Shown: positions 1-64,000 of the stretch, piece by piece
Layout of the letters: each line of letters begins with the position of its first letter
How positions within the stretch are numbered: the first letter of the stretch is position 1
Source of the DNA: Deinococcales bacterium
GTDB lineage: Bacteria > Deinococcota > Deinococci > Deinococcales > JAAFIG01
NCBI GenBank assembly: GCA_043778225.1
Contig: JAYWGM010000015.1
Span: 32,001-96,000 of the forward strand
Length of the DNA: 64,000 nucleotides
Reading direction: 5' to 3'
Position numbers and translations under genes: made by a program
The notes under the pieces: model-generated
Seen by the model: the letters and a program-made list of their open reading frames with translations, nothing else
What the model was told of the DNA's origin: nothing
Database searches by the model: none

Positions 1-78
1 AGGTTTACGGGGTACTCGAGACATAAACGGCATTGTCTCATGAATCGGTGAGAGGTTAAGCGTGTAAACTGGGAATAG

Positions 79-1170
79 ATGACAACGTTTCTAAAAAGCA
101 TTCAGATTGAGGGCTTTAAGTCTATCCGTTCGAGTACCCTCGAGTTACGACCTTTGAATGTGCTGATTGGGGCGAATGGGGCTGGGAAATCCAATTTTAT
201 TTCGTTTTTTAAGATGCTTAACCAAATTGCAAATGGCGAATTTGCATTCTGGGTTCAAAAATCAGGTGGAGCAAGCAGTTTGTTACACATGGGAACTAAA
301 GTTACAAGCAAAATTTCGGCTTTGCTGACGTACCAAATAGACGAGGCGGAGTTGAATTATCGTTTTGAGATTGACCATGTTCTTGCAGGTGATGGATTCA
401 TTTTTGAGGACGAGCATTCTTGGTATAAAACCCAAGAGCGACCATACATAATGGCTACTTCAACAGAATCGCGTTTGCTTAATGCTGCTCTGAGTAACGA
501 CCAAGCTGGATTACAAATTCGTAAGCTATTGCTCGAGAATCGTCCTTATCAATTCCATGATACTAGCGATACTGCGTATATGAAGCTAACAGGGACATTA
601 GATGATGATGTTTTTCTAAAGTCAGATGCTGGGAATCTGGCTGCGGTACTGTTTCGCTTGAAGAGTTTTCACCCAAAACATTACCAAAAGATTCTAAGAA
701 CAATCCAACTGAGCGCACCTTACTTTAAGGATTTTGTACTCGAGCCGAATGGACGAAATATTCGGCTTCGTTACCTCGAGTTTGGTTCGGAAACTGTTTA
801 TGGTGCGTATCAGCTTTCTGATGGAACATTGCGACTCATGGCACTTTTGACATTGCTTTTGCAACCATTAGAATCCTTACCAAGCACCATTTTAATAGAT
901 GAACCCGAACTTGGCTTACATCCTCATGCCCTCGAGACAGTGCTTTCAGTGATGAGAAGTGTTGGTGGTGAGAAACAAATTATTATTGCAACTCAATCTG
1001 TTTCGATTGTGGATCGGCTCGAGCCAGAGGATATTATTGTTGCCCAACGCCATGGTTCTGAAACTCAGTTTACTCGTCTTGATGCGACCAGACTTGAATC
1101 TTGGCTCGAGGAATACAGCCTTGGCGAACTCTGGGAGAAAAATGTTCTGGGTGGGAGACCATCTCGATGA
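79..1170 (+). CDS. ABC-type AAA ATPase (AAA_21/AAA_15-like)
   Basis: Walker A GANGAGKS, signature LSDGT, Walker B ILIDEPE, ATQS switch. Confidence 0.85.
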   Translation: MTTFLKSIQIEGFKSIRSSTLELRPLNVLIGANGAGKSNFISFFKMLNQIANGEFAFWVQKSGGASSLLHMGTKVTSKISALLTYQIDEAELNYRFEIDHVLAGDGFIFEDEHSWYKTQERPYIMATSTESRLLNAALSNDQAGLQIRKLLLENRPYQFHDTSDTAYMKLTGTLDDDVFLKSDAGNLAAVLFRLKSFHPKHYQKILRTIQLSAPYFKDFVLEPNGRNIRLRYLEFGSETVYGAYQLSDGTLRLMALLTLLLQPLESLPSTILIDEPELGLHPHALETVLSVMRSVGGEKQIIIATQSVSIVDRLEPEDIIVAQRHGSETQFTRLDATRLESWLEEYSLGELWEKNVLGGRPSR

Positions 1171-1865
1171 AACGCTTAAACATTTTGACGGAAGGTCAGA
1201 CTGAAGAAAAATTTGTCTGGGATTTACTTGCGCCGCATTTGGCAAACTTTGAAATCGTGGTCAATGCACGTTGCATCATTACTGGAAAAACACGTCCGTT
1301 TCAGGCAAATGGCAATCGTCAAAACAAACTTCACAAAGGCGGTCTGATAGATTTTCCGCAAGTGTCAAGAGACTTACAACGTTGGCGCAATGAAGATCCA
1401 CAAGCCACGCTGACCACAATGTTTGATTTATATGCCCTACCTGACGATTTTCCCTTGTACCAACAAAGTATAAACCAACCTCCTTCAGTAAGGGTTGAAT
1501 CACTTGAGCAAGCATTTTTAGACGAGCTTGGATTATCAAATTTCGTTCCGTATATTCAACTGCATGAATTTGAAGCCCTCTTATTTTCGGATATTCAAAC
1601 CCTTAATACCATCGTTGCTAGAGATTCAAAATACCCCGAGCAAACGTTGCGGCAACTACAAGAAATCAGTCAATCGTTTGAAAATCCAGAACTGATCAAT
1701 GACTCACCGATAACTGCTCCCTCAAAACGCCTCTACTCAATTTTTAGCGAAAAATATCAAAAGACTTCCGAAGGAAATGATGTGGCGATTCTAATCGGCT
1801 TAGAAAAAATCCGCGCCCAATGCCCACATTTTAATGCGTGGGTCACGAAGCTCGAGAATATCTAA
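1167..1865 (+). CDS. DUF4276-family (TOPRIM-like) protein
   Basis: Starts [14 protein letters not shown] with ATGA overlap on the ATPase stop; FDLY and HEFEALLF motifs. Confidence 0.75.
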
Positions 1866-2818
1866 GCCAATTCTTCAAATACCCCGAGTTTACGAAACCG
1901 CTCGGCTCGAGATTCCAGCAATGCCGTATGGCTCATCCCGTTCATCTGCTCGAGATGATTTAACAACGCTTTTTTAAGTTCTTCACTCGAGCCTACAGGG
2001 TCGTTATGCGCCCCGCCTTTGGGTTCTGGAATCACCTCGTCCACAATACTGAACTGCTCGAGGTCACGCGCTGTTAAACGCAGTGCCTCGGCTGCTTTCG
2101 AGGCTTCTTTGGCATCACGCCAAACAATTGCAGCACAAGATTCTGGACTAATCACACTGTAAACCGCATTCTCGAGAATTAACACGCGGTTGCCGACCGC
2201 AATTGCCAGCGCTCCGCCGCTACCGCCCTCGCCGATGATGACACTAATTACTGGCACGCGAAGCCGAGTCATTTTTTGGATACTTTGTGCAATCAACCAA
2301 GCCTGTCCGCGTTCCTCAGCCGCAATTCCGGGGTATGCCCCGGGGGTATCCACCAAGGTAATTAAAGGCAGCCCAAACTTATCTGCCATGTCCATCAAGC
2401 GCATGGCTTTACGAAACCCTTCTGGGTGCGCCATACCAAAATTCCGTGCAATGTTCTCCTTGGTATCGCGTCCTTTTTGCTGCCCAATCAGCACCACCGC
2501 CCGACCCTCGAGCCGCGCAAGTCCACCAACTATCGCAGAATCCTCGCCGTAAGCCCGATCTCCGTGCAATTCCTGAAAATCCGTGAAAATCCGCCCAATA
2601 AAATCCAATGCCGTCGGACGACCCGGTGCTCGAGCCAACTGCACCCGTTGCCAACGCGATAACTTCTCGTAAGTCTCCGAACGAAGCCGTTCAAGGCGCT
2701 TCTCGAGCAGCGCCAATTCCTCGCTCATGTCAACATTGCTGCTGCTGCCATATGCCTTTAACTCCTCAATTCGAGTCTCGAGGTCAACAATAGGTTTTTC
2801 AAATTCAAGTGCTGGCAT
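1862..2818 (-). CDS. accA: Acetyl-CoA carboxylase carboxyltransferase alpha
   Basis: [25 protein letters not shown] motifs. Confidence 0.97.
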
Positions 2819-2827
2819 AAAAACTCC

Positions 2828-2990
2828 AAGGTGAAAGGGGAAAAAGGGAAAAAGGGAAGAAGGAATGTGGTCCTAAACTTTTAACCTTTCTTGACCCCAA
2901 AGATGCACCTGTCTTGAACCAATACACGCACCTCACGGGCAGGTTCGCTTGTGGGCTGGGTTGCTTTTGACCCTTTAACCCTTTCACCTT
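2828..2990. repeat. Composite intergenic element with 12-bp terminal inverted repeats and an internal 38-bp hairpin unit
   Basis: AAGGTGAAAGGG (2828-2839) and CCCTTTCACCTT (2979-2990); 2912-2949 matches 49342-49379 at 33/38. Confidence 0.7.
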
Positions 2991-3916
2991 CATTTCCTTC
3001 TCCCAAACAAACCCGTCCGAGGTGGTGGCGGGACTTTAATCTCGAGGGTTGAGACTTCTGGTTTTGGTTGGTTTCTCAGTGCAGCGATTAAATTGGCGAG
3101 GGTTTCACGGTGTTGCCTTCTGTCTACCACCATGTCAATAAAACCTTTTTTCTCATAGAATTCTGAGCGTTGAAAACCATCGGGTAAACTCTGACGAACG
3201 GTTTGTTCAATCACGCGCTGACCTGCAAATCCAATTAGAGCATCGGGTTCACCAATAATTACATCGCCGATGGCAGCAAAACTGGCTGCCACACCGCCCG
3301 TGGTTGGGTCGGCAAGCACCGTGATGTACGGCAGCCCTTTAACGCTCAGTTGCTCGAGGGCAAAAGTGGTTTTTGCCATTTGCATCAGGCTTAACGCACC
3401 TTCCATCATCCGAGCGCCACCCGAAGCCGTGACCAAAATCATGCTGCGGTCTTCCTTGGTCGCCAGTTCTATGGCTCTGGTAATTTCCTCGCCTTCGCTG
3501 CTGCCCATGCTGCCGCCAGCAAATTCAAAATCCATGACACAAATCACAATAGGCAAACCCGCCAAGCTGCCACGCCCAGCGTAAATTGCTGATTCACGAC
3601 CCGTTTTCTTACGCGCCCGCTCGAGTTTTGCGACATAAGTATCGGTATCCACAAATTCAAGTGGGTCTTTGGCTTTGATTTTTCCACTGGTGACTTGGAA
3701 CGTACCCGCATCCAGCAGCCCTTCAACGCGGCGCTTGACTGGAATTCGGTGATGGTAGCCACACTTTGGGCAAACCCGCAAATTCTGCTCGAGTTCTTTG
3801 TTGTAGACCTGAGCGTTGCACTTTGGACATTTACCCCACAAATCGGGCAAATCATCATTAACCGTATTTTCTTTTAGTTGCGGAGGTCGCCGCCGAAAAA
3901 AACGCTCGAGGGTCAT
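2990..3916 (-). CDS. accD: Acetyl-CoA carboxylase carboxyltransferase beta
   Basis: C4 zinc finger CPKC..CPKC, GGSMG, SGGARMMEG, PTTGGV. Confidence 0.97.
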   Translation of the reverse strand: MTLERFFRRRPPQLKENTVNDDLPDLWGKCPKCNAQVYNKELEQNLRVCPKCGYHHRIPVKRRVEGLLDAGTFQVTSGKIKAKDPLEFVDTDTYVAKLERARKKTGRESAIYAGRGSLAGLPIVICVMDFEFAGGSMGSSEGEEITRAIELATKEDRSMILVTASGGARMMEGALSLMQMAKTTFALEQLSVKGLPYITVLADPTTGGVAASFAAIGDVIIGEPDALIGFAGQRVIEQTVRQSLPDGFQRSEFYEKKGFIDMVVDRRQHRETLANLIAALRNQPKPEVSTLEIKVPPPPRTGLFGRRK

Positions 3917-4102
3917 AAGGTCACTCGGCTCGAGGGTACAAGAATCGCTTTCACAATTTTATTCTACAATCTAAACCACATGAGTTGCTTGGACTGTGTT
4001 CAAAAAGAATGGAATCGAGAGGTGGACAGCCAATTTCTGGCTCCGCAGATTTGATTTAAGGCTCAAGGTTAGTGTACGACACAAACAAGGTTTTCGTTCC
4101 CG

Positions 4103-6081: not shown

Positions 6082-6624
6082 CTATGAGTCTTGTACTTTC
6101 TCGAGCCAGTACAAACTAAGCACATTCGAGCCGTACACACGTTTCTCGAGCCTAAAACCAGTCACTTCGGGCAGTTTAATTTGAATTGGATGTTGTGAAA
6201 TTAGCACACCATCTGGCTCGAGTTTAGCCAATGCCAAGGTTTTAAGCGTGATTTTCTCGAGGTCAGCGGTGTATGGCGGGTCTATAAAAATAATGTCGTA
6301 ACTCGGTGCAGACTCAAGGAATTTTAGAGCATCGGCTTTGATAACTTTAGCTTCAACTTTTAATTCACGACGGTTCTTCTCGAGAATTTCGGTGGCTTTG
6401 GAGTCTTTCTCGACCATTGTCACCAGATATTCTCGAGAAGCCGCCTCGAGTCCAACCGCCCCAGACCCAGCACATAAATCCAACAGGCTCGAGCCAGACC
6501 CAAAATGAACTTCGAGCAAATCAAACAGGCTTTTGCGAACTCGAGCAGGAGTTGGACGGGCAGTCCTGGGAATGTTCAGAGAACGCCCTTTGGCACTGCC
6601 ACCTAGAATGCGAAGGTCTGGCAT
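6082..6624 (-). CDS. rsmD: RsmD-family rRNA methyltransferase
   Basis: LRILGG..KGR, LDLCAGSG, FIDPPY; start placed at MPDLR directly after the purA stop. Confidence 0.85.
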   Translation of the reverse strand: MPDLRILGGSAKGRSLNIPRTARPTPARVRKSLFDLLEVHFGSGSSLLDLCAGSGAVGLEAASREYLVTMVEKDSKATEILEKNRRELKVEAKVIKADALKFLESAPSYDIIFIDPPYTADLEKITLKTLALAKLEPDGVLISQHPIQIKLPEVTGFRLEKRVYGSNVLSLYWLEKVQDS

Positions 6625-10006: not shown

Positions 10007-10073
10007 AGAATTAAGTTACCGCGTTTAGACCAACAAGGCAGTTCTATAGGCTACTTGCTGTTAAAATTATGGC

Positions 10074-11158: not shown

Positions 11159-11189
11159 ACATCATAGTAGCACCAATCAAGCGCAATCT

Positions 11190-19729: not shown

Positions 19730-20356
19730 TCAGGTCTTGGTCAGATGCTCAAACTGAGCAATCAGCAGCGCACACCCAGACTCGAGGCTGACGGTTATTG
19801 CGCCAAGTGCGATGTTAGAAATCCCAAGGCTCGAGCCAACCCCCAAGCTAGATTGCTCGAGATTCCATTTTGCCCCAGACAGCCTTAAACCAACACAAGG
19901 CTCGAGTGCCAACAAACTAAAAGTCTGGTTTGGCTCGAGGGCAATTCGGTGCTGCGTGGTAATCACCCAGCCAGCTTCATTGCCACTCTCGAGCGCTATT
20001 TCAAAACCGTTTTGCGATTCTCGAGCCGCCAAAAGAGCGATTGCCAGTGCATGGTCAAAGCGTCCGCCAAATGCGCCAAGAATCATGGTGCTGGTTGCTC
20101 CAAGGCTTTTAGCGCAAATCAGGGCTAACTCGAGGTCGGTCATGTCTTTTTCTTTGGGAAAGGTCTGGCGCGGTGCATTTAAGACAATCCCATCGCTCGA
20201 GTCAAAATCGCCAACCCACTGGGTGACGGTTAAGCCTAGGGCAATCGCGTGTCGCGCTCCGCCGTCGGCGGCAATCACAAGGCTGGCGGCTTGTGCCAAG
20301 GCTTGCACTCGAGGCGTAACGCTCAGGTGTCCAGCCGCAAGGATGATGGCGTGCAT
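19730..20356 (-). CDS. thiN: Thiamine pyrophosphokinase
   Basis: AADGG, GDFDS, KDMTD, GGRFDH, LGISN. Confidence 0.92.
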   Translation of the reverse strand: MHAIILAAGHLSVTPRVQALAQAASLVIAADGGARHAIALGLTVTQWVGDFDSSDGIVLNAPRQTFPKEKDMTDLELALICAKSLGATSTMILGAFGGRFDHALAIALLAARESQNGFEIALESGNEAGWVITTQHRIALEPNQTFSLLALEPCVGLRLSGAKWNLEQSSLGVGSSLGISNIALGAITVSLESGCALLIAQFEHLTKT

Positions 20357-21829: not shown

Positions 21830-23419
21830 ATGGAAACTACAGACAGGCAGTTTGAAAGTATCCTCTGGGCAGCCGCCGATAAATTACGCGGTCATATGGA
21901 TGCAGCCGAATACAAGCACGTTGTTCTCGGCTTGATATTCCTGAAATACATTTCGGATGCCTTTACAGGTCAATATGAAAAAATTAAACAAGAATTTGGC
22001 ATACAAGCAGCCGAAGATCGAGACGAATACGCAGCCGAAGGTATTTTTTGGGTTCCGCCCAAAGCTAGATGGGTTTACTTACAAGAAAATGCCAAAGACC
22101 CCAAAATAGGCGCACTGATAGACCAAGCAATGGAATTACTCGAGACCGAAAACCCAAAGCAATTAAAAGGAGTTCTGCCCAAGGATTTTGGACGACCTAC
22201 ACTAGACAAAACCAAACTAGGCGAACTGATAGACCAATTCAGCAACCTAAAAATGGCAGCCACAGAAAACAATACCAACACAGACCCCACAAAGAAAAAC
22301 TCGAGCAGCAAAGATATGCTCGGGCGAGTCTACGAATACTTCCTATCCAAATTTGCCAGTGCCGAAGGTAAACTCGGTGGGGAATTCTACACACCCACCA
22401 GCGTAGTACGGGTCATTGTCGAAATGCTCGCACCATACAAAGGACGCATCTACGACCCTGCCTGCGGCTCAGGTGGAATGTTTGTCAATAGCGAAAAATT
22501 CGTCGAAGCCCACGGTGGAAAAATAGGCGATGTCAGCATCTACGGACAAGAAAGCAACCCCACAACATGGAAACTCGCCAAAATGAACCTTGCCATTCGC
22601 GGACTAGAAGCCAACCTAGGCACACAAAACGCCGATACCTTCCACAACAACCAGCACCCAGACTTACGCGCCGATTACATCCTTGCTAATCCACCCTTTA
22701 ATATCTCCGATTGGGGCGGCGAAAACCTACGCCAAGACCAACGCTGGCAACACGGCACACCACCCAGCAGCAACGCCAATTACGCATGGATGCAGCACAT
22801 GATTTACCACCTTGCACCAAATGGCATTGCAGGATTTGTCCTTGCCAACGGTTCACTCAGCAGCAACTCGAGCGGTGAAGGCGACATTCGCCAAAAAATA
22901 ATCGAAGCTGACTTTGTAGACTGCATTGTATCCCTACCCGGACAACTCTTTTACACCACACAAATACCAGTCGCTCTTTGGTTCTTAGCCCGCAACAAGA
23001 AAAACGGACGAGGACTCGAAGGACGCACCCTCCGCGACAGAAGCCACCACACCCTATTCATAGACGCACGAAAACTCGGATACATGGAAACTCGAGTCAA
23101 CCGCAATTTTACCGACACAGACATTGCCCAAATAGCCGATACCTACCACAACTGGCGCGGCGACGGACAACAACAATACACAGACCAAGCCGGATACTGC
23201 AAAAGTGCAAACCTTGAAGAAATCAAAACCCACGGGTATGTTCTAACCCCCGGACGATACGTTGGCATAGAAGCCCAAGTACCAGACAGCGAACCATTTG
23301 AGCAAAAAATGCAACGCCTCACCCAACAACTCCAGACCCAATTTGAACAAAGCACCATTCTCGAGCAACAAATCAAAAATAATCTGGAGAAACTAGGCTA
23401 TGCCCTACAACCCAAATAA
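21830..23419 (+). CDS. hsdM: Type I RM methyltransferase subunit
   Basis: [30 protein letters not shown]. Confidence 0.96.
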
Positions 23420-23473
23420 ACACCACCAACAAGGCATCAGATGATAAAAACCACGAAATTTATAATTTGGGTT

Positions 23474-23501
23474 TGAATAATTTTTTTGTAACTCGAGCCA
23501 A
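23474..23501 (+). repeat. 28-bp direct repeat, copy 1
   Basis: TGAATAATTTTTTTGTAACTCGAGCCAA. Confidence 0.85.
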
Positions 23502-23548
23502 AACAAGTGATCAACAGCGAATTGATAATTTACCCTAAGGATTCTAAT

Positions 23549-24616
23549 ATGGCGCTTACACGCAAAAAAAACACAACTAAACCAGTAACTCAGGGTTTAC
23601 AAGGTTACGAAGTATTCATTAAAGAATTAAAACATTACATTCAACAAACCCAAGTGCGTGTCGCCATGACCGTTGGGCGCGAAGTATCCCAGCTTTACTG
23701 GCAAGTAGGTCAAAAATTTGTACTTGCCCAACAACAACATCAATGGGGCGATAAGATTTTAGAACAAGTTGCGGCTGATCTAAAAACAGCTTTTCCTGGG
23801 GTACAAGGTTTTTCAAAAGCCAATTTATACCGCATGAGAGCCTTTTTTTTAGCTTATCAAGATCAGAATTCAATTGTCGCACAAGCTGTGCGACAATTGC
23901 CTTGGGGTCATAATGTTGTTTTGTTACAAAAAATTAAAAATCCTAACGAACGGTTATGGTACGCACAGCAAATTCTCGAGTTTGGAATGAGTCGTTCAAT
24001 ACTAGAATTACAAATTCAAAATGGGCTATATCACCGGCAAGGTAAAGCCCTGACTAATTTTTCGACCACATTACCACCACTTCAATCTGATTTAGCGCAA
24101 CAAATTCTGAAAGACCCCTATAATTTCGATTTTTTAACCCTAGGTCAAGATGCCCATGAATTATCACTTGAACGAGGTTTACTCGAGCATCTGAAATTAT
24201 TTTTACTTGAACTTGGTGTTGGCTTTGCTTTCGTGGGAAGTCAATATCATCTCGAGGTGGGTGCAGAAGATTTTTATATTGACTTATTATTTTATCATTT
24301 GAAATTACGGGCTTTTATTGTGATTGAACTTAAAGCCCGAGAAGTAAAACCTGCCGATATAGCCCAAGTAATGGGTTACGTGGCTGTCGTGGATGAACAA
24401 TTGCGACATGAATCGGATGCGTCTACAATTGGTTTGGTTTTAGGTAAGGGCAAAAAATCGGTTATGGCAGAGTACGTTCTAAAAAATGTTAAAGCTCCGA
24501 TTGGAATTGCTGAGTATTTTACAGCCGAGACGTTACCAAATGACCTCGAGGCGGATTTGCCAAGTGTGGAGTTGCTTGAGGCGGAATTGGCTAAGTTGGG
24601 TGGTCTGGATGAATAA
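23549..24616 (+). CDS. DUF1016 / YhcG PD-(D/E)XK nuclease-family protein
   Basis: LYWQVG..WG, GFS..NL..MR, KDPYNFDFL, IDLLFYH, IELK. Confidence 0.92.
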   Translation: MALTRKKNTTKPVTQGLQGYEVFIKELKHYIQQTQVRVAMTVGREVSQLYWQVGQKFVLAQQQHQWGDKILEQVAADLKTAFPGVQGFSKANLYRMRAFFLAYQDQNSIVAQAVRQLPWGHNVVLLQKIKNPNERLWYAQQILEFGMSRSILELQIQNGLYHRQGKALTNFSTTLPPLQSDLAQQILKDPYNFDFLTLGQDAHELSLERGLLEHLKLFLLELGVGFAFVGSQYHLEVGAEDFYIDLLFYHLKLRAFIVIELKAREVKPADIAQVMGYVAVVDEQLRHESDASTIGLVLGKGKKSVMAEYVLKNVKAPIGIAEYFTAETLPNDLEADLPSVELLEAELAKLGGLDE

Positions 24617-24637
24617 TTTTTTTGTGGCTCGAGCCAA
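24610..24637 (+). repeat. 28-bp direct repeat, copy 2
   Basis: TGAATAATTTTTTTGTGGCTCGAGCCAA (26/28 identical to copy 1). Confidence 0.85.
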
Positions 24638-24646
24638 GGCGAATTT

Positions 24647-25918
24647 ATGAACAATGTAACTGTATACCGTTTCTCTGATTTATTTGAGAAAATAGTTGAT
24701 AATCGAGGTAAGACAGTACCGACTGAAGATTCTGGGATGCCGCTAATCGCAACGAATTGTATTAAAAATGATTCGTTGTATCCTGTATACGAAAATGTCA
24801 GGTTTATTTCTGATGAGACGTATAAAACTTGGTTTCGTGGACATCCAGAACCTAATGATCTAATTTTTGTTTTGAAAGGCTCACCGGGGCGCGTATGTAT
24901 AGCCCCTGATCCAGTAGATTTTTGCATTGCACAGGATATGGTGGCTTTACGTCCTGACGATACGAAAGTTTATTGGAAATTTTTATTTGCTCTTTTAAGA
25001 TCATCAGAAATGCAGTCTAAGATTGGGAATATGCACGTTGGCACTTTAATTCCACATTTCAAAAAGGGTGATTTTGATAATTTGTATTTGTCTATTCCAG
25101 ATAGAAAAACTCAAGAATTTATTGGGGATTTATATTTTTTAATCTCGAGTAAAATCGAATTGAACCGTGCTACCAATGCTACGCTCGAGGCTTTGGCGCA
25201 AACCCTTTTCAAATCTTGGTTTGTGGATTTTGATATTGTGAAAGCCAAAGCGCTTGGTCTCGAGCCAAAGGGTGTGGATGCCAGTACAGCCGCATTATTT
25301 CCAAGTGCTTTTGTTAGCTCGAGCATGGGCGAAATTCCAGAAGGCTGGGAAATAAGAGGAATAGATAGTATTGCAGATTTTTTGAATGGTCTTGCGATGC
25401 AAAAATACCCTCCAAAAAGCAATTTGTCATTACCTGTTATTAAAATTGCCCAACTTCGTAAAGGTGATACTGTCGGCGCTGACCGAGCGAGTACAGAATT
25501 GCCAGAAGATTACATTATACAAGATGGAGACGTACTTTTTTCATGGTCGGGAAGTCTGGAAGTCGTGATGTGGACAGGTGGAATTGGCGCACTGAATCAG
25601 CATTTATTCAAAGTTACTTCTCAGGAATACCCAAAATGGTTTTATTACCTTTGGACGCTCGAGCATTTAGCGGAATTTAGACATATTGCCGAAAGTAAAG
25701 CAACGACAATGGGACATATCCAAAGAAAACATTTGAGCCAAGCTCGAGTGAATGTCCCGCCTCGAGAAATCCTTGATAAGCTCGGAGCAATTTTAGAACC
25801 GCTTGTTGAAAATATGTACTTAAATAACCTTGAATCTAAACGACTTACCACTACTCGAGATTCGTTGCTTCCTAAGTTGCTGTCTGGGGAAATTGAAGTT
25901 GGAGACATAATCATATGA
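24647..25918 (+). CDS. hsdS: Type I RM specificity subunit
   Basis: Two TRDs, central KIELN...LFKSWFVDF...IPEGW, terminal RDSLLPKLLSGEI. Confidence 0.95.
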   Translation: MNNVTVYRFSDLFEKIVDNRGKTVPTEDSGMPLIATNCIKNDSLYPVYENVRFISDETYKTWFRGHPEPNDLIFVLKGSPGRVCIAPDPVDFCIAQDMVALRPDDTKVYWKFLFALLRSSEMQSKIGNMHVGTLIPHFKKGDFDNLYLSIPDRKTQEFIGDLYFLISSKIELNRATNATLEALAQTLFKSWFVDFDIVKAKALGLEPKGVDASTAALFPSAFVSSSMGEIPEGWEIRGIDSIADFLNGLAMQKYPPKSNLSLPVIKIAQLRKGDTVGADRASTELPEDYIIQDGDVLFSWSGSLEVVMWTGGIGALNQHLFKVTSQEYPKWFYYLWTLEHLAEFRHIAESKATTMGHIQRKHLSQARVNVPPREILDKLGAILEPLVENMYLNNLESKRLTTTRDSLLPKLLSGEIEVGDIII

Positions 25919-26961
25919 AGTTTCTTCAGGCAGAATTTGAACAAGATTTACTCGCAGAGATTGATGATAGTGGAGCAATCCGTATTGGCGAATCTTTATT
26001 TAGTCCTGTTGATATTTTGAGTAGTGACCAAGAAGCGTATGAAAACGAACTGACACTGTGGCGATCAGAGGTGTGGTTGCCACCAAAACTCGAGAAATTA
26101 AAGAAAATTCTTGAACTTGAAAATAACCAGCATCGGTTTGCAGATTTACTCGAACTCTTATTACGGAACAAAGTTGTCCCATTTGTTGGTTCTGGTATGT
26201 CCGCTTCTTCAAGTATGCCAATGTGGACAAAGTTTTTATGGCAACTTCAAACACAATCTACTTTGGCTGCAACAGATCTACAGGCTATGATTGATGCTGG
26301 GAATTATGAAGATGCGGCTTCGGCACTGATTGCTAATATGCCCAATCCACTATTTAACGAAAAGTTAGAGCAGACATTTCGAGCAAGACAATTAGATAAT
26401 GTTGTAGGTGCGGTCAAGTACCTACCACGTATTTTTGCTTCAACTGTTGTAACTACAAATTATGACAACATTTTAGAATTGGTTTTTCAGGATTTGGAAA
26501 TTGAATTTGACGAAATTTTATTTGGGAAACGAATAGAAGACCACTCAGAGTTTCGTCGTAATGAACAACGTTGCTTATTGAAATTGCATGGCGATTTTAG
26601 AAGACCATCTACTCGAGTTTTAACTAAGCCTGAGTACGACTCATGTTATCAAGAGGGTAGTGCTTTCAAAGCAGAATTATCTCTTATTTATCAGGCAAAT
26701 TCATTGTTGTTTCTTGGCTGTAGTTTACAGAATGACCGAACAGTTTCTTTGTTGGCTGAGGTTGCATCAAGAGACCCAACTATGCCACGTCATTATGCTT
26801 TTTTGGCTTCACCAGACACCCCAGAAGATAGAATAAGACGTGAACATTTTTTAACAGACCGAAAAATTTTTCCTATCTGGTATCCTGTTTTAGAACATAA
26901 TCACGATGAACCAATCGAAGCGCTTTTAATCGGTTTAATGCAAGGTTTAGGGAAAATATGA
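25915..26961 (+). CDS. SIR2-like (SIR2_2) protein with acidic N-terminal extension
   Basis: [25 protein letters not shown] motifs. Confidence 0.88.
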
Positions 26962-29900
26962 GTCAAAATTTTAACGAAAATACTGTTGAACAAGCCACGC
27001 TCGAGTGGTTGCGTGGTCTTGGTTACGAGTACGAATTTGGTCCGAGTATTGCGCCAGAAGAAAAACGTGCCGAACGAGCTTCTTTTCGTGAGGTGTTGCT
27101 CCTCGAGCGTTTGCGGGTTGCTTTGCAGCGTTTGAATCCCACTGCTCCTCTAGCGGCACTCGAGGAGGCGGTACGGCGTGTTTCCACACCAGAATTTCCT
27201 GCGTTAATGCAGAACAATCGGGCGTTTCATAGGTTGCTTGCCGAGGGTGTCGAAACCGAGGTGCTGCAAGATGGTGTGTTGCGTGGTGTGCTGGTGCGTT
27301 TGGTGGATTGGGATAATGTGGATGCCAATAATTGGTTGGTGGTTAATCAATTAACGGTTGTGGATGGGCAGATTAACCGTCGTCCAGATGTTGTGGTGTA
27401 CTTGAATGGGTTGCCAATTGCGGTCATTGAACTTAAAAACGCGGCGGATAAGAAAGCCACCATCGAAAATGCGTATCAGCAGCTTAGGACGTATCAAAAT
27501 CAAATTAGTCGATTGTTTGTTTTTAATGCCTTGTTGGTTATTTCCGATGGTGTGCAGGCTCGGCTTGGTTGTGTTGGGGCAGAAATGGAGCGTTTCCAAC
27601 CGTGGAAAACTGTTTCTGGTACAGAATTACTGCCCGAATCTCTGGAGACGCTGATTAAAGGTGTCTTTGACCGTTCGCGTTTACTAGCGTTCCTGCGTGG
27701 TTTTATTGTTTTTGAGGATTTTGGCTCGAGTATTCAAAAGAAAATTGCGGCGTATCATCAGTTCTTCGCGGTGCAAAAAGCCTTGCAGAGTACCGTAGTG
27801 GCTTCAAGTGCGGCTGGCGATGGCAAAGGCGGTGTGGTCTGGCATACCCAAGGAAGCGGTAAGAGTTTAACAATGGTGTTCTTCGCGGGTGGCTTGGTGC
27901 AAAGTGCAGCGCTGGCAAATCCAACCATTGTTATTTTGACAGACCGTAACGATTTAGACGATCAGTTATTTGGGACATTCTCGAGGTGTAAGGATTTGTT
28001 GCGTCAAACGCCTGTACAAGCGGGTAATCGGGCGGATTTGCGGGGGTTACTCGAGCGTGAGGCGGGTGGGGTGGTTTTTACAACCATTCAAAAGTTCTTA
28101 CCCGAGGAACGCGGTGATAAATTCCCAAGGTTATCGGCGCGGCGTAATATCGTGGTTATTGCCGATGAAGCGCATCGCAGTCAGTATGGTTTTGAAGCCA
28201 AAGTGGATTTGCAAACAGGGGATTTGCGTTATGGTTTCGCGCAGAATGTACGCGATGCGCTACCAAACGCTACTTTTCTTGGTTTTACGGGTACGCCAGT
28301 CGAAAGTACCGATAAGAACACCCGAGGTATTTTTGGTGAGTACATTGATATTTACGATGTGCAACGGGCAGTGCAGGACGGCGCGACTGTGCCTATTTAT
28401 TATGAGTCTCGGTTAGCTAAACTCGATTTGCTCGAGTCGGAAAAACCGCGTTTAGATGATGATTTTGAAGAAGTAACCGAGGGCGAAGAAGCCTTTAGTA
28501 AGGAAAAACTGAAATCTAAATGGGCGCAACTCGAGGCGCTGATTGGTACGAAAAAGCGGCTTGAGCAAATTGCAGCCGATTTGGTGCAGCATTTTGAAGC
28601 ACGGCAAGATGTGTTGCTTGGTAAGGGCATGATTGTTTGTATGAGTCGCCGTATTTGTGTGGATTTGTACAATGAACTGATTAAATTGCGTCCGACTTGG
28701 TTTGGTGCGTCTGATACAGAAGGTGTGCTTAAAGTGGTGATGACAGGTGCGGCTTCTGACCCTGACGATTGGCAACCGCATATTCGTTCTAAAGCCAGAC
28801 AGCGTGATATTGCCGAGCATTTTCGGGATGATACTTCCAATCTTAAATTGGTCATTGTGCGTGATATGTGGCTGACAGGTTTTGATGTGCCGTGTTTGCA
28901 CACCATGTACTTGGATAAACCAATGCGTGGACATGGGTTAATGCAGGCGATAGCTCGAGTCAATCGGGTTTTTAGTAATAAGCCAGGTGGTTTGGTCGTG
29001 GATTACCTTGGTTTGGCGAATAATTTGCGTGAGGCATTGGTCACGTACACCAGTAGCGGTGGGCAGGGTGCGCCGACGCTTGACCAAGAAGCGGCTTTTG
29101 CAGTGATGCAGGAAAAACTTTCGATTTGCCGTGGTTTATTTCATGGTTTTGATTACTCGGATTTTATGACTGGTTCACCATCTGATCGGGTGGCGATTCT
29201 GCCCGAAGCTCAGGATTTTATTTTGGCTCAAGATCGCGTAAAAGGTAAGGAACGCCTGATTAAAGCCTCGCTTGAACTTGCCAAAGCCTTTGCGTTGTCT
29301 GTACCACTCGAGGAAGCATTGGCTTTGCGTCAAGAAATTGTGTTTTTTCAGACTGTCCGCGCTATTTTCGAGAAACGCGAAGGTACAACCAATCAAGCTG
29401 CCAGTTCAGATTTGCACGATGCGATTCAGCGTTTGGTTGAACGGGCAGTTGCGCCCGAAGGTGTGATTGATATTTTTGCGGCGGCAGGTTTGAAAAAACC
29501 TGACATCAGTATTTTATCGGATTCTTTTCTGGCAGATGTGCAAAATATGCCGCAACGTAATTTAGCCGTAGAACTGCTCGAGCGTTTAATGAAAGACGAA
29601 GTGAAAACAGGTTCTAAACGCAATTTGGTACAATCCAAGGCTTTTTCGCAAAAACTCGAGGCTGCCTTATTAAAGTATCAGAATCGGGCAATAGAAACAG
29701 CGCAAGTTATTGAAGAACTAATTGCCTTGGCTCGAGCTTACCGTGATGTGCAAAACCGAGGCGAAAGCATGGGGCTTGCCGAAGATGAAATTGCTTTCTA
29801 CGATGCTTTACAAGTCGGCGACCCTAGTCAAATCATGGCGGATGATGTGCTGCGGACTATTGCTTTAGAAGTAGCACAAACTGTGCGGAACAACACCACA

Positions 29901-30059
29901 ATTGACTGGGCGGTGCGTGAACAAGTCCAAGCAAATTTGCGGCGATTGGTTAAACGTGTATTGCGTAAATACGGCTATCCACCTGAGCAGCAAGAAGCAG
30001 CCACAAACACGGTTTTGGAACAAGCCAAATTACTGGCACAATTGAATCAGGAGACGTGA
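26958..30059 (+). CDS. hsdR: Type I RM restriction subunit
   Basis: RRPD..IELK nuclease motif, [25 protein letters not shown]. Confidence 0.96.
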
Positions 30060-54835: not shown

Positions 54836-54879
54836 AGTCTGCCCTCGAGTTTTATTTTGTAATCGGGTAGACTGCCCTA

Positions 54880-56760: not shown

Positions 56761-56814
56761 TCTTGCACAGCAAGCGCTTGATGCCATAAAGTAGGCACAT
56801 CTCAGGGGGCATAC

Positions 56815-58350: not shown

Positions 58351-58365
58351 GAGCAGCAGTCTAAC

Positions 58366-58926
58366 TTACTCGAGCGGTGGGAGTTGCGCGTAGAGACCAG
58401 ATAGTACGATTTCAAATTCTAAACTCGGAAATTTTAGTACAGCCTCACCCTCAAGTTTTTTATAACGCCAATCTGAGCCATCCCTCGAGTACACTTCGGC
58501 GATTTCTTCGGTTTGTGAAAGTAAAACGTACTGCTCTAAACTTGGTATTTGCTGATAAGCCTGCCATTTTTCGCCACGGTCTATGGCTTCGGTGCTGCTC
58601 GATAGAATTTCAATGATAATTGTTGGGTGATACTGGACTCGAGCCTTTTTTTCGGCACTTTGTTTTACAAAATAAATATCTGGGTAGTAGCCACGCCCAG
58701 AAGGTGTTTGTAAGCTGACATCGTTATAAGTGTAGTAGCCGCGTTTTAAGGCGTGTTGCAGAATCATTGCAATTAAAAACAAAGCCATTAAATTATGCCT
58801 ATCAGTTCCACCAGCCATAACAAACAGATTACCATCTACAAACTCATGGCGTTCTTGGCTGTGGCTTTCAAACTCGAGGTACTGCTCGAAAGTTGTGGCG
58901 GTTTTGACTGGCATTTCTCGAAGCAT
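58366..58926 (-). CDS. Uma2-family endonuclease
   Basis: HEFVDG..MAGG, YYPD, EILS.ST...DRGEK. Confidence 0.9.
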   Translation of the reverse strand: MLREMPVKTATTFEQYLEFESHSQERHEFVDGNLFVMAGGTDRHNLMALFLIAMILQHALKRGYYTYNDVSLQTPSGRGYYPDIYFVKQSAEKKARVQYHPTIIIEILSSSTEAIDRGEKWQAYQQIPSLEQYVLLSQTEEIAEVYSRDGSDWRYKKLEGEAVLKFPSLEFEIVLSGLYAQLPPLE

Positions 58927-58946
58927 AAGAAAGTATACTCGCTTTT
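58927..58946. promoter_or_regulatory. Bidirectional leaderless promoter
   Basis: Palindrome AGTATACT gives TATACT on both strands, 5 and 7 nt before divergent ATGs. Confidence 0.65.
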
Positions 58947-60095
58947 ATGTTTGAGTTTTTAACCACTGCCACATCTGGTCGCTCGAGAGTAGCGACATTT
59001 TCTACACCATTTGAAACCGTGACCACGCCAATGTTTATGCCAGTTGGCACACAGGGGAGTGTCAAGAGTTTATCGGCACGGGATTTACGCGAAATTGGCT
59101 CGCAGATGATATTAGGCAATACTTACCACTTAATTTTGCGTCCTGGACTCGAGATAATGCAGCAATTTGGCGGTTTACGTGGTTTTACAGCTTATCCTGG
59201 TGCATTTTTAACCGATTCTGGTGGTTTTCAAGTCATGAGCCTTGGGCATATGCGAACTATTACCGAACATGGTGTGGTTTTTAAGAACCATATTAACGGC
59301 GACAAGCTCGAGATGACTCCAGAAAGCAGTGTAGCAGCCCAAGAAGCGATAGGAGCGAACATCATCATGGCATTTGATGAATGTCCACCGCACCCTGCAA
59401 CCTTTGACTACGGCAAGGCGAGCTTAGAGCGTACCGTGCGGTGGCTCGAGCGCTGCTTACAAGCCAAAACCCGAGATGACCAAGGTTTGTTTGCAATTGT
59501 CCAAGGTGGAATTGACCTCGAGTTACGCCGCCGTAGTCTCGAGGCAACCCTGCCATTTGCCACACCCGGCTTTGCGATTGGCGGCTTAGCCGTAGGGGAG
59601 AGCAAAGAGGAAATGTACCCCAGTGTGGACTTTGCGACCCAACATTTACCGACCAATAAGCCGCGCTACCTGATGGGGGTTGGTTTCCCCGAGGACTTGG
59701 TTGCCAGCATTGCACTTGGGGTGGATATGTTTGATTGTGTGTATCCGACTCGCACGGCGCGATTTGGCTACGCACTGACTTCCCAAGGGCGCTTAAATTT
59801 GCAAAATGCCAAGAACCGCACCGACCCCGCGCCGCTCGAGGCAGGCTGCGATTGCTATGCTTGTCAGAATCACTCGAGGGCTTATATTGCCCATTTGCTC
59901 CGTGCCGAAGAAATGCTTGCGCCGCGCTTACTGAGCTTGCACAATTTGCGCTTTTTGCACCGAATTACTGAGGCGGCTCGAGCCGCGATTTTAGAAAATA
60001 ACTACCATGATTGGGCGCTCGAGTGGGGAGAACAGTATTTTAAGAACAGTATTCCAGCTTGGTTTGTACAAGCCATAGAATCTGGACGTGGTTAA
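58947..60095 (+). CDS. tgt: tRNA-guanine transglycosylase
   Basis: FMPVGT, TDSGGFQ, PRYLMGVG, C.C..C..H zinc site. Confidence 0.96.
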   Translation: MFEFLTTATSGRSRVATFSTPFETVTTPMFMPVGTQGSVKSLSARDLREIGSQMILGNTYHLILRPGLEIMQQFGGLRGFTAYPGAFLTDSGGFQVMSLGHMRTITEHGVVFKNHINGDKLEMTPESSVAAQEAIGANIIMAFDECPPHPATFDYGKASLERTVRWLERCLQAKTRDDQGLFAIVQGGIDLELRRRSLEATLPFATPGFAIGGLAVGESKEEMYPSVDFATQHLPTNKPRYLMGVGFPEDLVASIALGVDMFDCVYPTRTARFGYALTSQGRLNLQNAKNRTDPAPLEAGCDCYACQNHSRAYIAHLLRAEEMLAPRLLSLHNLRFLHRITEAARAAILENNYHDWALEWGEQYFKNSIPAWFVQAIESGRG

Positions 60096-61919: not shown

Positions 61920-62968
61920 GGTTTAGTCTCGAGTTTTTTGGCAGCTTGAGCCGTCGCCTGTGCCAGTACAGCCGAACCACCAATAAACGGACCAATTAAG
62001 TAATACAAGTAATATGATAAAACCCGCCAAATCAGCACAAATGGCACGACCGCTTCTTTGGAAATCCCAAGCGCAGAACTGCTTGTACCAAGCACGATTT
62101 CAAAGTATCCAGCCCCACCGGGGGTTGGAATAAAGAAACTAAAATAGACCAGCAAGACTTGGGCTGCGATTAAGCCAAAGTTATCCACTGTATAACCAAG
62201 TGCTGCCAAAACCAAATTGGCGGCAGCAAAATGAAATGTAAAATTAAGGAAGGTGGATAAATGCAGTTTGACTTGAGTCGAAAAAGACAATTGCCGCATT
62301 TGCCCCATCGCCTCGGCGGTTTCAGCAATAAAACGCAATGCACTGCGCTGAAAACGTTTTAGAAATTTAAGGTTGCAAATCATAAAAACCAATTTCTCGA
62401 GCCGATGAGCTTGGTATGCCACACCATAGGCTAAGCCAATGGCGATGACTGTTCCAATAGCAACCAGCAGACCTAAAAACGAGCCAATCACGGGGAGATT
62501 TAAGTTGATACCAGCAAAGTACAAATAAGCAAAAGATAATGGCAGAGCATAGGCATAAAAAACAAGGTCAAGCGAAACAGAAAAAATTGCTACCGCCGTG
62601 GCGCGTCTCGAGTCGGTATACTGCGATAAATACCACGCCATCGCCACATTTGCCCCACTGGCACTGGGTGTGGTGGCTGCACCAAACAAATACAGCAAAA
62701 AGGCGCGGGTAGCTCGAGCAAGGGTTACATTTTTGTTGTTTGATAAAAGTTGAATGCGCCAACCAGCCACCAACCACCAAGCCACCACCGATGCTACAAA
62801 AACAATCGCCCAAAGTGGATGAATCTGAACGGTGCGGCTAAATTCTTCGGGGTTAAATTCTTTACCCAGACTGAGCAGACCAAAGACACCCAGCGCCGAG
62901 AAAGCCAGTGTAATGAGTAAGGCTTGAATCGCGTTTTTCACATTTGACCTCGAGACAGCATAAAACAC
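61916..62968 (-). CDS. Lysylphosphatidylglycerol-synthase-TM / flippase-like membrane protein
   Basis: Multi-TM; TP...G, PTPGGAG..E, WR...YY. Confidence 0.8.
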   Translation of the reverse strand: MFYAVSRSNVKNAIQALLITLAFSALGVFGLLSLGKEFNPEEFSRTVQIHPLWAIVFVASVVAWWLVAGWRIQLLSNNKNVTLARATRAFLLYLFGAATTPSASGANVAMAWYLSQYTDSRRATAVAIFSVSLDLVFYAYALPLSFAYLYFAGINLNLPVIGSFLGLLVAIGTVIAIGLAYGVAYQAHRLEKLVFMICNLKFLKRFQRSALRFIAETAEAMGQMRQLSFSTQVKLHLSTFLNFTFHFAAANLVLAALGYTVDNFGLIAAQVLLVYFSFFIPTPGGAGYFEIVLGTSSSALGISKEAVVPFVLIWRVLSYYLYYLIGPFIGGSAVLAQATAQAAKKLETKP

Positions 62969-62994
62969 GATAACATTTCGCGGCTCGAGGTGGC

Positions 62995-64000
62995 TTAATT
63001 GCGAAACAGCACTTGTTCTTTGCTAAAGTTGCGAAGCGCTAAGAATGCTGTTCCGACGGCAAAAATCAGGTTGGCAATCACAATGACTGCTATAATTTCT
63101 GGTGTGGCTTTGCCTTTGACAATATCAAGTATTCCCAAAGTGCTGCCAATGATGGGTGTGGCATACAATAAGGTGCTGCGAGCAATAAAATCGCCAAACT
63201 GCATCCCGATTGACACAAACTGAGAAATGATTTGTAAAGGCACAAGATACGTCTGGGCTTCCTTGAACGAACGCGCATAAATGCCAATCGAGACCAAAAT
63301 ACCAGATAACATCAGCGCCACTGTAATTCCAATCAAGAACATCGATAAAAATCCTTCTACCCCGAGATTTAAGTTACCACCAAATAAAGCGCTGATTTCG
63401 CTCGAGTCGCTAGAACCAAATTGCTTGAGGACAATTGGGCTGAGTAACCCAGAAACCACAAAAGCCGAGACCTGCATGACTACACCAAACAGAGCAAACA
63501 AGGTGACTGCCAGTAATTTACCCAGCACGACCTCGAGCCGCTTGACAGGGGAGACCAGCAGAATCTCAAGGCTACCGCGTTCTTTCTCGCCAGCCGTGCT
63601 GTCCACTGCCACGGTACTTGCGCCACCCAGAATCGCTAAGAAAATAAACATCGGGAATAAAAAAGCAAAGACCCCGCCGGAACGCTCCGAAACGGTTTCG
63701 GCATTGACCGCCGAAGCCCTAACTGGCTCGAGGGTCTCGGGCGTAAGTCCAACCGAAGCCAATTTTTTAACCACCAAAGACTTTGAGTAATTTTGAATCG
63801 CATCCTCAATTTTATTGCGAACCACCGAGGCTTTCTGATTGCTAAATTTAACAAAGACTTGAATATCCACTGGCTTTCCACCAGCCGAATTGGGTACACC
63901 GTTTTTGGGTATCGAAAGCGCCGCTTCGACCTCGCCATTTTGGACAGCCTCGAGTGGCTTTTGAATCGGTTTGAGTTCGACCCCTGCGCCACCCGTCCCA
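62995..64000 (-). CDS. ABC-2 permease (NatB-like), 5' end outside the window
   Basis: AGEKERGSLE.LL..P, ARSFKEAQ; frame stays open to the window edge. Confidence 0.85.
   Translation of the reverse strand, partial: GTGGAGVELKPIQKPLEAVQNGEVEAALSIPKNGVPNSAGGKPVDIQVFVKFSNQKASVVRNKIEDAIQNYSKSLVVKKLASVGLTPETLEPVRASAVNAETVSERSGGVFAFLFPMFIFLAILGGASTVAVDSTAGEKERGSLEILLVSPVKRLEVVLGKLLAVTLFALFGVVMQVSAFVVSGLLSPIVLKQFGSSDSSEISALFGGNLNLGVEGFLSMFLIGITVALMLSGILVSIGIYARSFKEAQTYLVPLQIISQFVSIGMQFGDFIARSTLLYATPIIGSTLGILDIVKGKATPEIIAVIVIANLIFAVGTAFLALRNFSKEQVLFRN

Follow-up and report, generated by a model that had tools for sequence, protein, structure and literature searches.

The palindrome CTCGAG is hyper-abundant in an uncultured family of Deinococcales and behaves like a highly iterated palindrome

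The hexamer CTCGAG was confirmed to be hyper-abundant in the genome of an uncultured member of the Deinococcales, where it is held by a force acting at the level of DNA that is strong enough to alter proteins. The window (the whole stretch of DNA analysed, 64,000 bp) contains 388 copies (6.1/kb), with 7 to 17 in each of its 32 bins of 2 kb, and the genome from which it comes (G000) contains 24,877 in 4,029,277 bp, i.e. 6.17/kb or about one per 160 bases. The order-0 expectation is 0.22/kb, in agreement with the chance level of about 0.25/kb given in the initial annotation, whose hand counts (Table 1) all proved exact. Genome-wide Markov-corrected counting, which had been proposed as a check, yielded observed/expected (O/E) ratios of 47.5 (order 1), 15 (order 2) and 63 (order 3, sites masked).

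As noted earlier for the window, sites occur in all frames and between genes: in G000, 13,768 are read as LE, 4,495 as xRx and 4,538 as xS[S/R], and 2,076 (5.35/kb) lie outside gene calls. The enrichment is of comparable fold in intergenic DNA (52x) and in the whole genome (63x), and only a mild rise is seen between convergent genes (8.1/kb vs 5.6-6.5/kb). A density set-point for CTCGAG was rejected because the fold is similar in non-coding and coding DNA. The excess did not vanish on codon-preserving shuffling, three synonymous-codon shuffles of G000 giving 1,918-1,977 genic sites vs 22,801 in reality (11.7-fold), and the LE dipeptide has the highest O/E of all pairs in the proteome (2.33). 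Selection on protein sequence is therefore not the explanation, as had been argued; it is the proteins that bend. The unit is the exact hexamer, with no consensus in its flanks in G000, rather than the TCGA of the TaqI site, since one-off NTCGAG words have O/E of 1.6-1.9 vs 63 for CTCGAG. The largest site-free gaps in G000 are low-GC islands; no 10.5-bp phasing was found in its 107-contig assembly at lags up to 1.2 kb, and no cluster of sites surrounds its dnaA gene.

Table 1. Location of CTCGAG sites and of the features discussed in the window
Feature	Position	Strand	Remarks
CTCGAG set, 388 dispersed copies	1..64000		counted; part of 24,877 genome-wide
First 4 kb, AAA ATPase/DUF4276/accA region	1..4000		24 sites
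rsmD-like methyltransferase ORF, 543 bp	6082..6624	-	9 sites; name from the initial annotation, DPPY motif
thiN, thiamine diphosphokinase, 627 bp	19730..20356	-	TIGR01378; 10 sites
Type I RM locus, hsdM - YhcG/DUF1016 - hsdS - SIR2-like - hsdR	21830..30059	+	34 sites in 8,230 bp

The excess is also present in assemblies of relatives: in the uncultured family, 19 of 19 genomes carry 4.3-6.8 sites/kb, and cultured Meiothermus-type relatives are enriched 6-7x, whereas the Thermus-type and Deinococcus-type genomes among the 260 compared lack the enrichment. Two genomes of one genus, each with a GC content of 0.50, differ about 20-fold (about 6.9-7.0/kb in G253 vs 0.3/kb in G197). A tree of one gene, ComEC, suggests that the excess is ancestral, with at least three losses, one of them inside a single genus. 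In a metagenome scan with GlpK the matches were not close (55-64% identity). Two public runs yielded contigs that match positions 40000-59999 of the window with 0-1 differing letters in the long pieces listed, but they belong to one study that is possibly its source, and so are not independent; no usable polymorphism was obtained from them. The G000 assembly lacks 16S rRNA. No published report of CTCGAG excess in Deinococcota was found in a search that covered few subscription papers.

CTCGAG is conserved between relatives, 300 of 333 sites being kept in comparison with G005, vs fractions of 0.66-0.82 in seven rows of control words and 0.43 for CTTGAG. Gain and loss, which had been proposed for study against relatives, show the same preference: synonymous loss has an O/E of 0.07-0.22 across six positions and gain an O/E of 3.8-8.3 for the five commonest one-off words, these ratios coming from three non-independent pairwise comparisons and sharing the same events. 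A Halpern-Bruno bias of ln63 predicts a loss of 0.07 and a gain of 4.2. Site turnover fits single-base steps with a selection-like bias of about ln63: in a stepwise model of LE turnover calibrated on other Leu-X pairs, the counts were 256/20/5/2 for G005 (expected 254.5/15.4/7.0/1.1; p=0.69) and 111/15/9/1 for G004 (expected 107.8/18.1/6.3/0.7; p=0.17), the G000 row being left unused as its fit reached the edge of the time grid. Drive and true selection leave an identical substitution pattern, and rates cannot separate them. Strictly polarised tip events comprise 39 losses and 9 gains, so that either the clade is off equilibrium or the polarisation is biased. Flanking DNA is unprotected, divergence at four-fold sites being 0.15-0.18 in all 8 bins of distance from the site (G005), with three other pairs similar.

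A second CTCGAG within about 60 bp is disfavoured in G000 and turns over faster. An LE pair is written as a site with probability 0.31 if a neighbouring site lies 6-11 bp away, against 0.82 when the neighbour is more than 170 bp off (permuted, 0.65 and 0.74), and the log-odds per neighbour rise from -2.1 at 8-9 bp through about -0.5 at 24-33 bp and about -0.3 at 42-65 bp to about 0 beyond 200 bp. A neighbour at 60 bp or less is associated with higher turnover in G000 (OR 1.80, p=0.0015) and G005 (OR 1.66, p=0.047), not significantly in G001 (p=0.09) or G004 (p=0.53). In stretches of 400 kb, the neighbour effect is missing from G043 (P 0.49-0.57, g(7-18)=1.31) and weak in G169; it is suggested in a small sample from G253.

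The link to methylation that had been proposed is only partly supported. Orphan CTCGAG m6A methyltransferases with no cognate nuclease listed (M.Mru1279II, M.Mch9957IV and M.Mhy14884I) are reported from motif-rich Deinococcota, with m6A at 94-99.5% of CTCGAG in three cultured relatives, and none of the five motifs listed for M. silvanus is CTCGAG (Blow et al. 2016, PMC4752239). Since Allomeiothermus silvanus is CTCGAG-enriched with no CTCGAG methylation listed, methylation appears to protect the sites rather than to cause their excess. No close relative of the three orphan enzymes was found in G000, the three methyltransferase families searched for gave no close member there or across its family, and no methyltransferase common to the 19 family genomes (57-94% complete) was found, although other enzyme families may exist. 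Several enzymes were rejected as candidates: TaqI-like P0001, with strong matches among 80 genomes only in G025, two of g21 and six of Thermus type; family A1, in 5 of 7 g13 and 12 of 19 f2 genomes, none of the 19 family genomes giving a strong match; PaeR7I-like family A2, with near full-length matches in 9 genomes out of 80, seven of them already in the query; N4/N6 enzymes, none in G002, G013 or G196; C5 enzymes, none in G010 or G169; and a C5 enzyme common to genus g1 and G253 (C33:16107), which is probably specific for CCGG (O/E 0.29, 0.05). The PaeR7I-like profile has only a weak match in G000 (E 7e-17, in a 1,353-aa frame), and PF04555, a test for the XhoI/PaeR7I type, has none there and was silent in all 14 controls as well. 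The type I RM locus of the window has 4.1 sites/kb, under the genome mean, and no link between it and CTCGAG was found.

ComEC and a ComEA-like protein are encoded in G000, which also gives a DprA-like motif match. ComEC is present in 16 of 17 other family genomes and in 77 of 80 genomes altogether, including motif-poor G197 and those of Thermus type, so competence machinery is not diagnostic. As causes, ComEC, ComEA architecture and NucS were rejected since they do not follow the excess, as was AddAB: of the 11 other family genomes searched, 6 match PDDEXK_1/AddB (PF12705), and there is no match in G000, G007, G009, G010, G013 or G014. Vsr, found in 1 of 5 genomes (not in G000, G006, G013 or G169), and RadC, found in 0 of 72, do not track it either. 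CTCGAG is present in 10 of the 43 CRISPR spacers, with no self-matches, and 87 copies lie in the 33 kb of phage MMP17 (5.6x). A viral scan for three close sites returned 131 mostly GC-rich loci, none assignable to the host and none matching a spacer.

The explanation that we tentatively prefer, while holding it short of probable, is that CTCGAG is upheld by molecular drive exerted through natural transformation or recombination. A putative sequence-specific reader, a protein acting in uptake or recombination, would prefer DNA bearing the word; site-making alleles would spread and site-breaking alleles be displaced, by single base changes, with a population-scaled strength of about ln63 = 4, and a second site near the first would add little. 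Where cultured relatives have CTCGAG methyltransferases, these would be a shield against XhoI-type nucleases, not the cause. We infer the action through transformation, the reader and the protective methylation. Uptake in H. influenzae is not raised by a second uptake sequence within 100 bp of the first, and such words can arise through drive alone (PMC7811141); in Synechococcus 7002, HIP1 increases transformation (bioRxiv 10.1101/2024.09.10.611283). Against drive, the candidate genes (ComEC, ComEA architecture) do not track the excess, the neighbour effect is missing in G043 and weak in G169, and drive in the host chromosome does not obviously explain the word in spacers and MMP17. Known uptake sequences are also longer and non-palindromic, which counts against drive. 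It is possible, if doubtful, that CTCGAG is a second phylum's own, independently evolved HIP word: ancestral to the Deinococcota, lost at least three times, in no need of methylation, and driven by a putative reader that would bias uptake or heteroduplex resolution in chromosomes, plasmids and phages, with enough force to double a dipeptide in the proteome.

It seems rather unlikely that CTCGAG is under true selection as the binding site of an abundant, sequence-specific protein (a nucleoid organiser, a protective coat or a self-mark for a defence nuclease) whose footprint would cover about 15-20 bp, with mimicry accounting for the word in phages and plasmids. Such selection would leave the same substitution signature as drive; the steep penalty under about 18 bp fits steric exclusion, spacers and MMP17 bear the word, and Xu et al. 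favour selection on HIP1, with a role in the chromosome (PMC5861425). The lack of helical phasing and of a dnaA cluster, the gap in density between the two genomes of one genus and the want of a candidate protein argue against it. Spacers, phage and plasmid would equally be accounted for by biased gene conversion within the cell, in which short-patch heteroduplex repair among chromosome copies, resident plasmids and prophages retains the site-bearing strand with neither uptake nor fitness benefit. Its rate pattern is equivalent to selection, the 10-20 bp range suits a short patch, and polyploidy has been described for T. thermophilus and cyanobacteria (PMC6469415, PMC6478999), but with Thermus-type and Deinococcus-type genomes lacking the excess and neither Vsr nor NucS following it, we consider this process unlikely.

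A repair-linked origin, raised in the initial annotation, gained no support in the form of a replication-coupled, methyl-directed mismatch-repair ratchet (Elhai 2015), in which sites label the parental strand and new ones fix until repair can reach most of the DNA from some site. Saturation near existing sites is predicted (PMC4390886, section 3.4), MutS- and MutL-like motif matches are present in G000, and the m6A of three cultured relatives would fit; the flat four-fold divergence, the greater loss of sites with a close neighbour, the motifs of M. silvanus and the failure to find a methyltransferase common to the family make the ratchet improbable. The writing of a site by a single multi-base event that overwrites six bases at first looked strong, as 7 of 9 strictly polarised gains involved 2-3 changed bases relative to the ancestor (0.24 and 0.07 expected from controls), transversions made up 34 of 70 changes in single-taxon gains, and three-base LE differences in G001 numbered 4 vs 0.3 expected (multi-base p=0.04). 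It was largely withdrawn, and is now thought very unlikely, on the evidence of flanks (divergence about as around any multi-base window), of a distant relative (for 44 of 79 multi-base cases the site is present in G000 as well) and of the stepwise model, which fits G005 and G004; multi-base losses are equally common (7), and new sites resemble other sites over no greater length (p=0.81). That the excess is a by-product of restriction-modification, of codon or base composition, or of assembly is scarcely credible. About twenty genes resembling DNA methyltransferases are indeed present in G000, where most other 6-bp palindromes are avoided, but the codon shuffle, the excess in every family genome, the contrast of G253 with G197 at equal GC, and the enrichment of G013 and G010 without strong avoidance of 4-bp palindromes all speak against it.

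HIP1 has gone thirty years without an agreed function, partly for want of an independent counterpart, and CTCGAG is a different word that behaves in the same way in a second phylum, where it is denser. Natural controls are at hand in the same-genus pair (7.0 vs 0.3/kb), in two cultured, motif-rich species, M. ruber with and A. silvanus apparently without listed methylation, and in transformable, motif-poor Thermus thermophilus, so that models of uptake, repair and binding are directly testable. Cloning, transformation and binning in these organisms would be affected. If CTCGAG is indeed such an independently evolved HIP word, highly iterated palindromes would be a recurring selfish or self-marking drive in competent, polyploid bacteria, with Meiothermus/Allomeiothermus vs Thermus as the system in which to dissect it.

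Chi (RecBCD/AddAB) is, like CTCGAG, short and over-represented, and is linked to recombination. Chi is polar and non-palindromic, unlike CTCGAG, and AddAB is not matched in every genome that is enriched in the word. Kamoku and Nielsen compare HIP1 to Chi. The uptake sequences USS/DUS of Pasteurellaceae and Neisseriaceae share with CTCGAG an origin by point mutation, sparseness in new DNA and explicability by drive, and are redundant within 100 bp (PMC7811141), as close copies of CTCGAG are disfavoured in G000. Unlike them, CTCGAG is a 6-bp palindrome with only a mild rise between convergent genes. It is also several times denser than USS. The CTCGAG methyltransferases of Blow et al. recognise the same word, their account concerning methylation, not genome-wide excess, and a CTCGAG cluster near dnaA in Nocardia (PMC4752239) has no parallel in G000.

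The HIP1-like behaviour claimed at the outset is borne out. Like HIP1 (GCGATCGC) and the alternate cyanobacterial HIPs (PMC4390886; Xu et al. 2018, PMC5861425; Rodriguez-Cruz et al. 2026, PMC13756078), CTCGAG is a short palindrome found genome-wide, in all frames and in intergenic DNA, and it is hyper-abundant, conserved at synonymous positions and missing from low-GC islands. Both exceed controls in conservation, span a phylum with sporadic losses, have a loose connection with orphan methyltransferases and are of unsettled function. HIP1 correlates with RadC, which is absent from all 72 genomes here, and the CTCGAG methylation of relatives is m6A. The host is not cyanobacterial, the nearest named records of its AccA being 'Deinococcales bacterium' MAGs (83-90%), and the HIP1 octamer is not in excess, its core CGATCG having an O/E of 0.29 in G000 (182 copies). 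CTCGAG differs from HIP1 in word, in having six bases, in phylum and in density (6,200/Mb vs 300-2,700/Mb), although the degenerate 6-mer rCCGGy of Elhai also exceeds his HIP range of 500-2,500 (PMC4390886). Among the marks of highly iterated palindromes as a class, an orphan methyltransferase for the word that is conserved across the 19 family genomes was not found; Markov excess, occurrence in all frames and non-coding DNA, and conservation over controls are all found in CTCGAG.

The palindrome CTCGAG occurs 388 times in the window and 24,877 times (6.17 sites/kb) in the source genome G000 (4.03 Mb, 48.7% GC, 89% complete), in which all 105 contigs longer than 3 kb carry it at 4.0 to 10.6 sites/kb. 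The hand counts of the initial annotation were exact: 24 sites in positions 1-4000, 9 in the rsmD-like ORF (543 bp), 10 in thiN and 34 in the restriction-modification (RM) locus. The excess in G000 is 47.5-fold under an order-1 model, 15-fold under order 2, 63-fold under order 3 with sites masked, and 52-fold in intergenic DNA. The annotation had also held that the word appears in every reading frame and that protein sequence does not explain it; both claims stand, as the 3,907 ORFs called in this analysis contain 13,768, 4,495 and 4,538 sites in the three frames, and codon-preserving shuffling leaves only about 1,950 sites in genes versus 22,801 observed. CTCGAG encodes 69% of Leu-Glu (LE) pairs, and no other dipeptide of G000 is as over-represented as LE (2.33-fold). 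The sites have no flank consensus, and words one base away (one-offs) occur at 0.5 to 1.9 times expectation.

The longest site-free gaps in G000 are mostly low-GC islands (top gaps of 2.0-5.6 kb, GC 0.31-0.46), and the sole dip in site density is over the ribosome-binding site and initial codons; no cluster of sites was found around dnaA. The tRNA genes of G000 contain 5 sites in 5,573 bp; four tRNA genes with a site lie in a single array, versus one among all other tRNAs. A CRISPR array, presumably type I-E-like, has 44 identical 29-bp repeats and CTCGAG in 10 of 43 spacers, for which no host match was found. Meiothermus phage MMP17 has 87 sites in 33 kb, and 30 kb of plasmid pMESIL01 have 39 versus 10 expected.

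Several other features of the window and of G000 were noted (see table). The YhcG/DUF1016 gene lies between hsdM and hsdS and resembles a cassette with a site-bearing repeat at either end. The dispersed repeat appears REP- or IS-end-like; it has 56 blast matches in G000, of which some are tandem and others sit at the ends of contigs, and sister genomes also contain many.

Features of the window and of other G000 contigs
Feature	Location	Remarks
AAA ATPase and adjoining DUF4276 gene	window 79-1865	defence-like pair
Type I RM operon	window 21830-30059	passengers: YhcG PD-(D/E)xK nuclease and SIR2_2 protein
28-bp direct repeat, 93% alike	window 23474-23501, 24610-24637	CTCGAG in each copy; flanks YhcG/DUF1016 gene
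ORF with two tandem MerR-type HTH domains	window 38017-38784	seen as 99-bp internal repeat
Dispersed repeat, ~38 bp	window 49342-49379	inside ORF
tRNA gene array	G000:C19 ~9900-12800	
CRISPR array	G000:C80:1-2700	
C5 methyltransferase and HNH nuclease pair	L015:1453-3082 (G000:C33)	

The nearest named records to G000 are 'Deinococcales bacterium' MAGs. The phylum Deinococcota was surveyed in 261 genomes (G265 is unpublished, and no claim is based on it), and the excess proposed from the window extends to relatives: all 19 genomes of the uncultured Deinococcales family f1, which includes G000, have 4.3-6.8 sites/kb. Genera g13 (22 genomes), g18 (4) and g19 (3) have 1.4-3.5 sites/kb; g9 (30 genomes) has 0.6-1.6, with a reversed control word of like magnitude; and g7 (96 genomes), probably Deinococcus, has at most 0.27. 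Proteins of G043, G169 and G181 bear the names Meiothermus ruber, Allomeiothermus silvanus and Calidithermus chliarophilus, respectively, and the ComEC of G069 (genus g9) is named Thermus thermophilus. The excess is 6.3-fold in G043 and 7.0-fold in G169 (400 kb of each). Two genomes of one genus and equal GC, G253 and G197, have 7.0 versus 0.3 sites/kb, a sampled excess of 75-fold versus 1.9-fold and a sampled LE observed/expected ratio of 2.35 versus 1.20. In a midpoint-rooted tree of one gene, ComEC, from 21 genomes, these two group together (100/100) beside G196 (3.6 sites/kb) and a g7-type clade, and f1 adjoins this group with weak support (80/66). By parsimony on this gene, the trait would be ancestral and would have disappeared from the Thermus and Deinococcus types and from G197; independent gains are a possible alternative.

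The sequence CCTCGAGG, possibly an 8-bp restriction site overlapping CTCGAG, is selectively depleted in G000 (0.30 of expectation) and not in G043, G169 or G253. G253, G043 and G169 (loci L234-L237 and L569 for G253; L600-L639) differ from G000 in that 79-89% of their sites have C or G as the adjoining base, possibly an extended preference in G253, where GC is 50%. Most other palindromes, 6-bp ones included, are very strongly avoided in G000 (GGCC has 131 copies in 4 Mb, and many 6-mers are below 5% of expectation), in line with its some twenty methyltransferase-like genes.

Site turnover was examined by aligning genome G003 to G005, G001 and G004 (67, 43 and 26 kb for retention; 105, 67 and 48 kb for polarised events; divergence 5.8-11.9%). 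Against G005, 300 of 333 sites were retained, versus 0.66-0.82 of control words and only 13 of 30 CTTGAG words. At synonymous third positions, site loss was 0.07-0.22 of the codon-matched background at each of the six positions, and one-offs were paired with a site at 3.8-8.3 times expectation (ratios unpolarised and pooled over non-independent genome pairs); by our own arithmetic, a loss ratio of 0.07 and a gain ratio of 4.2 are expected from a selection-like bias of ln63. A stepwise bias model calibrated on other Leu-X pairs fits LE turnover in both G005 and G004; for G001, it predicts slightly too few multi-base differences (p=0.04). Of the strictly polarised events, 9 were gains, 7 of them multi-base, and 39 were losses, of which 32 involved a single base and 7 were multi-base. 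Wholesale writing of sites, at first favoured for the multi-base gains, was largely abandoned: multi-base losses are equally numerous, in 44 of 79 multi-base cases the site is also present in the distant G000, the flanks do not stand out from those around other multi-base windows, and a search for an ectopic template showed none. Patchy divergence and short-lived one-offs suffice to explain these gains, and losses may outnumber gains at the tips because the word is declining in that clade (4.8-5.2 sites/kb versus 5.9-6.4 in sisters).

In G000, CTCGAG sites have a pair correlation of 0.39 for spacings of 6-17 bp and of 0.77-0.91 for wider ones up to 65 bp. With the protein fixed, the probability that an LE pair is encoded by the site rises from 0.31 with a neighbour at 6-11 bp to 0.82 beyond 170 bp (0.65-0.74 with labels permuted within genes), among genes of at least 300 bp and 2 sites/kb. 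The penalty per neighbour falls off smoothly with distance, with no helical phasing detected. Turnover of sites with a close neighbour is significantly faster in the G005 and G000 comparisons and not significantly so in G001 and G004, and four-fold divergence is independent of distance to a site. Thus, close sites appear partly redundant and give their flanks no shield, which argues against the repair-linked process suggested by the initial annotation, at least as the ratchet proposed by Elhai (PMC4390886, accessible parts). The neighbour effect appears in G253 (a small sample), weak in G169 and absent from G043, and may therefore be visible only where the force is strong.

The methylation link, also suggested initially, is partly supported by some cultured relatives: according to the accessible parts of Blow et al. 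2016 (PMC4752239), Marinithermus hydrothermalis, M. ruber and M. chliarophilus have active m6A enzymes for CTCGAG with no cognate nuclease listed, and the five motifs given for M. silvanus do not include CTCGAG. The candidate proteins found here probably are the enzymes of those locus tags. The Marinithermus candidate is M.TaqI-like (~55% to Thermus relatives), and those of M. ruber and Calidithermus form one PaeR7I-like family, A2. A candidate third family, A1, probably M.Eco57I-like to judge by a source name, is found in many genomes of family f2 and in five further genomes of g13. The link was not seen in G000 or across f1: the search, which covered these three families plus N4/N6 and C5 enzymes in MAGs 57-94% complete, found no close member of the three in G000, G253, G196 or g18, only one f1 genome (G009) has an A2 member, a distant one, and N4/N6 and C5 methyltransferases are patchy. 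Since several unrelated enzymes address one word in some lineages and none was found in the densest, CTCGAG methylation reads best as acquired protection. The C5 methyltransferase and HNH nuclease pair of G000 has a counterpart in the distant G253 (L091, 60% identity); six other g1 genomes have that methyltransferase, with no match to the nuclease in the locus.

These results define what kind of force is at work: it is selection-like, sequence-exact and exerted per site, reaches coding DNA, non-coding DNA and parasites, is locally redundant, and is tunable between lineages. As to the agent, a drive through transformation or recombination that would favour CTCGAG-bearing DNA is the leading candidate, tentatively and somewhat short of probable, because competence genes are present in G000, uptake sequences are alike, and HIP1 data point the same way. 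Uptake sequences share the redundancy of copies within 100 bp, and drive alone can produce them (PMC7811141); HIP1 boosts transformation (bioRxiv 10.1101/2024.09.10.611283), and HIP1 co-varies with pilus and competence genes, a test that HIP1 methyltransferases fail, according to the accessible parts of these sources. Two close rivals account better for the phage data: true selection for a protein that coats DNA or marks it as self, which is rather unlikely, and biased conversion within the cell, which is more doubtful still. Vsr, ComEC, the form of ComEA, an AddB-type nuclease, NucS and RadC were rejected as causal genes, their distribution not following the trait.

The CTCGAG excess is real and large. 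No report of it in Deinococcota was found in the open literature, and it may have been remarked on in subscription literature or REBASE. New here are the agreement with a stepwise bias model, the curve of redundancy between neighbours and its limits, the finding that flank divergence is flat, and the candidate genes that were excluded. The likeness to highly iterated palindromes (HIPs) drawn in the initial annotation was borne out in each class test that was run, except that of a shared methyltransferase. CTCGAG is not HIP1, but it works in the same way as the HIP class, as far as the accessible parts of PMC4390886, PMC5861425 and PMC13756078 describe it.
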